Shown: positions 39,001 through 42,000 of the stretch, piece after piece
Numbering within the stretch: the stretch's first letter is position 1
Layout of the letters: each line of letters starts with the position of its first letter
Assembly (NCBI RefSeq): GCF_000026545.1
Contig: NC_011601.1
From: Escherichia coli O127:H6 str. E2348/69
Lineage (GTDB): Bacteria; Pseudomonadota; Gammaproteobacteria; Enterobacterales; Enterobacteriaceae
Direction: 5' to 3' (one strand)
Length of the DNA stretch: 64,000 nt
Made by a program: the position numbers

Positions 39001-42000
39001 CTCAACATCTCCTGAATCCAGATCAGCAGCGGAGTCAGAAACGCCAGACCGACAAACTGACCAGACGTATAAAAACCAACGGCAGAAGCACGTTCATGTT
39101 CCGGGAACCAACTGGTTACCATCCGGTTATTGGTCGGGAACGCGGGCGCTTCGAAAATACCGGTTATCGCGCGCAGACCAATTAATGACATTAAGCCCGT
39201 GGCAAAGCCCTGGAATAACGTCGCCACTGACCAGCCAAATATCGCAATAAAATAAGTCACGCGTGAACCTACGCGATCTAAAAACCAACCACCGGGGATC
39301 TGACATAGCGTATAAAGCCAGGCGAAGGCCGAAAATACATAGCCCATTTGCGCTTTAATAATACCAAACTCTTCCTGAATATGGGCAGAAGCCACGGCCA
39401 GGTTAGCGCGGTCAACATAACAAATGACCACCGTAATAAAGATCATCACCAGCGTCAGATAACGCCGACGCCCCGGCTTTGCTGCATTAACGGGAATATC
39501 CATAGCGAGCTTTCTCCAGATTTTGGGCATAGCGAAGCCGCTCACCATGCCCTGTAATTTACAGAGGGTTATATTTTTGTATTGCTGTTTTAGTGCCCGA
39601 TGAGGGGCTTACGTGGCAGGAATTACCACTCTGCTACGCTGTTATCTTCATGACGCCAGAGCGGATTACGCCAGTCCGGGGCATTTTTACTGAACTCAAT
39701 AACTTTAGCTTCGTCGATTTCCACGCCTAAGCCCGGTTTCGTTAATGGTTTAAAGAAACCGCCGACCATGCTGAAGTCCTCTTTGTTTTTCACAAAGTCG
39801 AGTAACTCCGCGCCTTTGTTGTAATGAATGCCCATACTTTGTTCCTGAAGGACGGCGTTATAGGAAACAAAGTCGATATGCAGGCAAGCCGCCAGTGCAA
39901 TCGGTCCGAGCGGACAGTGCGGCGCAAGGGTCACGTCATAGGCTTCTGCCATTCCGGCAATTTTGTAGCATTCGGTAATACCGCCTGCATGGGCTGTCTC
40001 TTGATCAGATCTCCTGATCAAGAGACTTCATCACCAGGTAACCCTCAACCATATCCTGAAGTCTGAACCAGCCATCCCACATGACTACCCAACCGGGGCG
40101 ACCGGTGCGTTTGCTGTCATGCCATCGCCCCAGTTTCGCCAGTTTCAGACAGGCCCATTTCAGTGTCGGCATCTGTGACGGAAGCGGTTTTCCTTCCAGC
40201 TTAACCCACAGCAGTTTCCACTCTGTCGGCGTCAGTATTTTCTCACAGCTGTCATTTTGTGTTTCTTCACTGATACCGCCCTGCCGCAGGCCCAGCACCC
40301 GCACCGCGATAAACGCCTTGATAACCACCATGCGCTCGAGGTTATCCCGGGTCTGCATTCGCAGCGATTCCACACATGTACCACCACTTTTCCACGCCTT
40401 GTGGTATTCCTCTATCAGCCAGCGTCGCTCGTAATGGCTGACGATACGTCGCGCATCGGCGGCACTCGCCACTTTTTCTGACGTCAGCAGATGCCAGCAG
40501 GCGCCGTCCTCTGCCTGCTCCCGGCAACAGACATACGTGAGCGGGAGCGCCTGGCCGCTGTTGTCGGGATTTTTTATGCTGACTTCGCTGTAACTGATGA
40601 ACATCCGGGCCTGGCGGGCTGCCCGCCCGCCTTTTTGCATCACATTCAGCGTGTGGCTTCCCGCGGTTGCCAGGACTTCCGGCAGTTCGAAGAGCTTGCC
40701 GGGTGCTTCTTCCAGCCGGCGATTCTGTGCTGCACGCACCACGAAGCGCTGCCCGTGGCTGACTTTATAATGCAGGTAATGCCAGATATCCGCTTCCCGG
40801 TCACAGACAGTGATTACCCGTTTCTGTATCTCCCCCAGCCGTTCGGCCATGCGCTCCGAAGCCTGCTGCCAGCGGTAACTTTCTTTTTCTTCATAGGGAC
40901 GTTCTTTTCGCTGGTGCTTAACACCGTAGGTGTCCGTGGCACGACTCCAGCGCTGCTGTTCGATAAGACCGACTGGCAGGGCGCTGTCGGGGGCGTACAT
41001 CAGGACAGAGTGAGCCAGCAGCCCGCGCGTCTTCGGGTTAGTGGTGGTATTCCCCAGGTCATCAGATGCCGTACTGTGACTGAAGTTAATGGTGGTGGTG
41101 TCTTCCAGCGCGAGGAGCAGCGGATGAGCCTCACATGCCCTTACAGTGGCGGTAAATCCGGCTTCGGCAATGGCTTGCGGGGACACAGACGGGTTACGTA
41201 TCAGGCGGTACGCACCTTCAACCTGAGCAGTGGACTGGGATGATTTCACAATAGAAAGACCTGCATGCTGAGCGAGAGAAGAGGCCAGTGACACAAGGCG
41301 TCGTGTACGACGCGGATCACCGAGACGGGCATGTCCAAACTGCTCGTTAGCCCATGAATAACAATCAGAAAGTACCATAACAGACCCGAAGAAAATGAAA
41401 TATAAGAGAAGATCAACGGGTGAGGAAAAAGTTCAAAAAATCGCTGCCGGGGAGGAAGGAAACTACCGGATGGAAAGAGTCCCCCTAAAGCAGACTGACA
41501 GACATCACAAATCCCCGGGTGGGGATTTGTGTATAAGAGACAGTGCATGGGAGAGATCCGGTTGCAGAATCGAAATACCGCCTGCCTCCAGCACACGTTT
41601 AAAATCGAAGCGTGAGAACATGCGCTCACCCGCCGCCAGTGGAATATGCGTTTGTGCCGCCAGTTTCGGGTAGTATTCGGCCTGTTCCACCAGCACCGGC
41701 TCTTCAATAAACAGCGGGCGATACGGTTCCAGCTCTTTAATCAGCACTTTCGCCATCGGCGCGCTGACGCGACCGTGGAAATCAAGACCAAACTCAATCT
41801 GATTGCCAAAGGCTTCACGAATTTGCGCCACGGTGTTGACTGCCGCATCTACCGCGCGGGAGTTATCAATTAGCCCCAGTTCTTCACAACCGTTCAGTTT
41901 GAAGGTATCGAAGCCGATTTCGCGTAGCGTTTTAATGCCGTCGATAACATCCGCAGGACGATCGCCGCCGACCCAACTGTAGGCTTTAATTTTGTCGCGA

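Follow-up and report, generated by a model that had tools for sequence, protein, structure and literature searches.

How did the D-galactonate dehydratase gene dgoD come to lie in two pieces in Escherichia coli E2348/69, which element separates the pieces, and what has its arrival meant for the operon around it? According to our analysis of the whole stretch of 64,000 nucleotides in which the locus lies (the window), the intervening DNA is ISEc13, an insertion sequence from the IS50/Tn5 group of the IS4 family. The copy is full-length and probably still active, and it entered dgoD by transposition at codons 260-262, within the lineage of the enteropathogenic (EPEC) O127:H6 strain E2348/69. We give this reading a probability of about 95%. 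The finding is real but ordinary, as it joins a catalogued insertion sequence, an already annotated pseudogene and a reference strain. In our search of the literature for ISEc13, for E2348 with galactonate and for E2348 with insertion sequences or pseudogenes we met passing mentions only, which cover neither the dgoD insertion nor the biology of ISEc13.

The element, its transposase and the empty site

ISEc13 occupies positions 39994-41543 on the minus strand (1550 bp) and is bracketed by two copies of the 8-bp repeat TGCATGGG, at 39986-39993 and 41544-41551, which exactly abut its two ends and correspond to a sequence present in a single copy in intact dgoD. Read along 39980-41560, the layout is ACCGCC, TGCATGGG, the element from CTGTCTCTTGATCAGATCT to TGTGTATAAGAGACAG, then TGCATGGG again and AGAGATCC, and the chance that a given 8-mer is repeated at the exact right place is about 1 in 65,536. 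The terminal repeat at 39994-40012 (plus strand), CTGTCTCTTGATCAGATCT, is of the inside-end type; it holds the stop codon of the transposase gene (40005-40007) together with two GATC sites, and it agrees in 19 of 19 positions with the inside end of the IS50 copy from plasmid pMAK2. The opposite one, CTGTCTCTTATACACAAAT at 41525-41543 (minus strand), is of the outside-end type and agrees with the IS50 outside end CTGACTCTTATACACAAGT in 17 of 19 positions. Compared end to end, the two have the nine perfect bases CTGTCTCTT in common and match in 13 of their first 19 bases, and each of the end sequences was found a single time in the 64-kb window, where shuffles gave an expectation of none. Imperfect terminal inverted repeats of the IS50 type (CTGNCTCTT...) with distinct inside and outside ends are thus found together with a short target duplication, as in the IS50/Tn5 group; the IS50 group is listed with duplications of 8-9 bp.

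The natural outside end carries a T at position 4, and it agrees with the mosaic end in 17 of 19 positions, as well as it does with the outside end. A T at position 4 is one of the three changes that define the hyperactive engineered mosaic end of Tn5.

An earlier note on this DNA had described, from the sequence alone, a 1550-bp element with IS50-type inverted-repeat ends, a left end identical to the IS50 inside end, a perfect 8-bp direct repeat and a dgoD split at the codons for Ser-His-Ala. All of these points stand, the last because the minus-strand frame of dgoD reads ...LQPDLSHA and then enters the element, being split at Ser260-His261-Ala262, with the rest of the gene resuming beyond it. 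When the element is deleted in silico together with one of the two repeats, the joined dgoD forms an open reading frame of 382 amino acids. The 800 bp around the join are 100% identical, in one ungapped piece, to intact annotated dgoD in four genomes, and they are matched with at least 80% coverage in 5013 of the 5426 complete E. coli genomes. It follows from the perfect match of the joined site to intact dgoD that the gene was whole before the element arrived and that the insertion duplicated 8 bp, neither more nor fewer.

The element is filled by a single long open reading frame (40005-41378, minus strand) that encodes an intact transposase of 457 amino acids, identical to WP_000244358.1. 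It matches the sequences of the Tn5 transposase crystal structures over residues 6-453 (E = 6e-84) and scores 514 bits against NCBIfam NF033590, whose cut-off is 160. The full Tn5-type set of domains is present, with the N-terminal DNA-binding domain (PF14706, Tnp_DNA_bind, E = 2.8e-19), the DDE core (PF01609, DDE_Tnp_1, 4.8e-07) and the C-terminal dimerisation domain (PF02281, Dimer_Tnp_Tn5, 9.7e-05). The catalytic triad is kept, D93, D193 and E323 aligning with Tn5 D97, D188 and E326, and so is the Y-(2)-R-(3)-E-(6)-K motif, in which Y316, R319 and K330 align with Tn5 Y319, R322 and K333.

We base the name ISEc13 on the RefSeq/PGAP annotation of 100% identical copies that encode the same protein, WP_000244358.1, under the product name "IS4-like element ISEc13 family transposase". 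By the ISfinder convention, two copies are the same element above 95% DNA or 98% protein identity. Over its 1550 bp our copy is 100% identical to others in E2348/69 and in strain B19374, and copies from many unrelated strains agree with it at 99.9% identity.

In Tn5 a dimer of the transposase brings both ends together and releases the element by way of hairpin intermediates; the element is then joined to the target at staggered cuts, and repair of the gaps gives the duplication. By analogy, a dimer of the ISEc13 transposase would have bound both 19-bp ends and cut the element out, and the excised ISEc13 would then have been joined to staggered cuts in dgoD. Repair of an 8-base stagger would have produced the duplication of TGCATGGG. 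What remains of DgoD is a stump of 262 residues with 12 foreign ones, and the expression of dgoT downstream may have changed as well.

The dgo operon and transcription across the insertion

The gene order at the locus is yidR, cbrA, dgoT, a dgoD fragment, ISEc13, the other dgoD fragment, dgoA, dgoK and dgoR, and the operon dgoR-K-A-D-T is read from the minus strand. The 5' piece of dgoD (codons 1-262) lies at 41544-42329, and its reading frame, 41505-42329, runs into the insertion sequence and ends after 12 foreign residues; the 3' piece, from within codon 260 to the stop codon, lies at 39623-39993. Both, also on the minus strand, are already flagged as pseudogenes in RefSeq. The reconstructed DgoD has D183, H185, E209, E235, D258 and H285 all in place. 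The first five of these residues belong to the 5' piece and H285 to the separated 3' piece. Since His285, a catalytic base of E. coli DgoD (a member of the enolase superfamily), is not part of the stump, galactonate dehydratase activity should be lost.

An intact dgoD elsewhere in the genome, which the earlier note had named as an observation that would speak against its reading, did not appear on the E2348/69 chromosomes: by megablast they carry no second copy, and the 3' fragment maps once to each of the three. Plasmid places of dgoD are rare in the whole collection (only 4-5).

Since the transposase gene points the same way as the dgo genes, dgo transcripts enter the insertion sequence in the sense direction. 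The intact gene of the D-galactonate transporter, dgoT (38211-39548, minus strand), is the sole gene of the operon downstream of dgoD, and any polar effect is therefore limited to it; such polarity is plausible.

Perfect hairpins were found at both ends of the element by inverted-repeat search and folding. The one at 39996-40026 has a 13-bp stem (GTCTCTTGATCAG / CTGATCAAGAGAC) with a 5-nt loop, in which the inside end pairs with a partial copy of itself in inverted orientation, and three GATC (Dam) sites fall within 33 bp. The other, at 41506-41531, has an 11-bp stem (CACAAATCCCC / GGGGATTTGTG) and is situated in the transposase leader, where it reaches into the inner portion of the outside end. 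A second, weaker stem in the leader ends in the U-rich run GCAGCGAUUUUUUGAACUUUUU (41430-41495, minus strand). Transcription that reads in from outside, at this locus from the dgo promoter, could be weakened by the two leader stems.

Of the six terminator-like sites in the region, the plus strand, which is antisense to the transposase gene, has five, where 1.3 would be expected. Those on the antisense strand could halt transcripts that come in from the inside end. A terminator-like site of this strand, at 40613-40640, reads GGCGGGCTGCCCGCCCGCC and then TTTTTGCATC.

For the users of E2348/69 the consequence is a practical one: the reference EPEC strain has its D-galactonate pathway broken by its own most expanded insertion sequence, which is relevant to studies of gut carbon sources or of colonisation. 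As to RNA elements, an Rfam scan of the window returned ordinary E. coli RNAs only. Its matches were AsdA, the antisense RNA of the dnaA mRNA (52463-52543), the ROSE_2 thermoregulator upstream of ibpA (35190-35262) and the sRNA ES036 (46950-46986), and they fit a window that extends across the region of dnaA.

Age, copy number and target choice

The dgoD-element junction was searched for with a query made of the dgoD 3' fragment and 15 bases of the insertion sequence, the fragment alone being 100% identical in too many genomes. It is present in three of the 5426 complete E. coli genomes, all of them variants of E2348/69, from which we conclude that the insertion is recent and strain-specific. 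The relatively recent transposition proposed in the earlier note is in this way confirmed, and the copy count which that note had called for gives 27-30 places of ISEc13 per E2348/69 chromosome and 2 on the plasmid pMAR2. Full-length copies are present in 873 genomes.

All three carrier genomes belong to the same named strain, and E2348/69 has about 30 copies of the element, some of them recombined, so one may ask whether the insertion belongs to the strain at all or came about by misassembly or within one laboratory stock. We consider such an origin highly improbable, for the left junction is the same in three assemblies of E2348/69 variants that were deposited separately. Moreover, the two junctions are both there, the duplication is perfect, and an artefact would not copy exactly 8 bp of a site that occurs only once in intact dgoD. 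Hardly credible, too, is the suggestion that the copy is a dead relic, with an old disruption of dgoD that was inherited while the element degraded and became immobile. A simple consensus scan found no sigma-70-like promoter for the transposase gene, which could be taken in its favour. However, the open reading frame is intact, the duplication perfect and the copy 100% identical to copies elsewhere, while intact dgoD alleles match the flanks at 100% identity and the insertion is confined to one strain.

We thus keep to a recent insertion by an element that is probably still able to move. WP_000244358.1 is encoded at many different sites in unrelated strains, and recent activity of ISEc13, as judged from sequence, is supported by this identical protein at many sites, by the intact open reading frame and by independent copies that are 99.9-100% identical.

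Further information on target choice came from 18 other ISEc13 copies that we fetched (L003-L020), of which 16 loci, or 32 half-sites, were analysed for a motif. The duplication measures 8 bp in ten of these copies, 9 bp in four and 7 bp in one; two copies have none, and L018, which shares its site with L010 and L017, was not classified. Among the 32 half-sites, C is found at positions -5, -4, -3 and -2 in 25, 30, 27 and 29 cases, respectively, and a pyrimidine at -1 in 30. At the 16 other loci, CCCCY stands directly 5' of the duplicated bases on each strand, and these counts define the preferred target as the palindrome CCCCY-N7-9-RGGGG. The target sites are nearly all intergenic (after tRNA-Pro, beside ibs toxin genes, between convergent genes), and most of them are terminator-like hairpins.

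The length of the duplication, 7-9 bp, seems to track the spacing between the C-run and the G-run. The four copies with 9 bp, including one that has a mismatch, and the single copy with 7 bp are found among L012, L013, L014, L016 and L019. The copies L003 and L013 occupy the same tRNA-Pro-proximal site, yet their duplications measure 8 and 9 bp. Two copies, L004 on the E2348/69 chromosome and L005 on pMAR2, have different sequence on each side and no duplication, which suggests past recombination between insertion sequence copies, with inversion or deletion. One of these two abuts a truncated fructose PTS IIA gene.

The site in dgoD, for which we compared 39980-39993 and 41544-41557, is a degenerate form of the motif (CCGCC and TCTCT), in which the C at -4 and at -2 is kept on both sides, and the 64-kb window holds no strict-consensus CCCCY-N7-9-RGGGG site. 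It is tempting to suggest that ISEc13 chooses its targets far more strictly than Tn5 and that the dgoD insertion was an off-consensus event during a burst that gave about 30 copies in E2348/69; we offer this as a tentative idea, to which we give somewhat less than even odds. Our literature search found no paper that describes a target preference of ISEc13, and the ISfinder entry may already record one. A strict target preference in a natural relative of Tn5, if true, could be of interest to transposase engineers.

ISEc13 beside IS50, IS231A and its own catalogued copies

The kinship with IS50, for which we directly compared the 1534-bp copy from Tn5 on pMAK2 (outside end CTGACTCTTATACACAAGT, inside end CTGTCTCTTGATCAGATCT), is visible in the whole plan of the element. 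Each has one transposase gene that runs from an outside-type to an inside-type end and has its stop codon at the same place within the inside end, where all 19 positions agree including the two GATC sites, the outside ends agreeing in 17 of 19. ISEc13 and Tn5 also have in common the DDE and Y-R-E-K residues and the DNA-binding, catalytic and dimerisation domains.

With the same layout, stop-codon position and nearly the same ends it could be argued that we are dealing with IS50 or one of its isoforms, that is, a Tn5 remnant, but this deserves practically no weight against about 53% global DNA identity with three short local BLAST matches only, 42% protein identity, a length of 1550 against 1534 bp, a transposase start 165 against 92 nt from the outside end and the separate names, IS50R and ISEc13, used in RefSeq. 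The more than 95% DNA identity that marks an isoform is far from these values of about 53% (DNA) and 42% (protein). With so low an overall DNA identity, ISEc13 is a separate member of the IS50 group and not an isoform. The earlier note had called the transposase clearly diverged from that of Tn5, which agrees with the 42% amino acid identity (436 aligned positions) and the DNA figure; its suggestion of a possibly distinct IS4-family member is right as to the separation from IS50, whereas the element is not new, being already catalogued as ISEc13.

The differences from IS50 extend to several functional parts. The transposase leader is longer (165 nt against 92 nt between the outside end and the start), the duplication measures 8 bp here and 7-9 bp among the copies against 9 bp for IS50, and ISEc13 differs from IS50/Tn5 by its strong CCCCY-N7-9-RGGGG target preference and the extra hairpins at both ends. 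By direct comparison, IS50 has no inverted partial copy of the inside end at the corresponding place. At the position of Tn5 Met56, where the inhibitor protein starts, the ISEc13 transposase has Gln52 and no Met, and an inhibitor protein started at that codon is consequently not expected for ISEc13.

Another member of the IS4 family, IS231A, reportedly prefers a symmetric GGG-N5-CCC target, and the copies of ISEc13 likewise lie in a symmetric motif of a C-run and a G-run; IS231A differs from ISEc13 in the motif, its spacing, the duplication length and the subgroup. Beside the catalogued ISEc13, finally, the element itself shows no difference at all, and it is the insertion site in dgoD alone that is particular to E2348/69.
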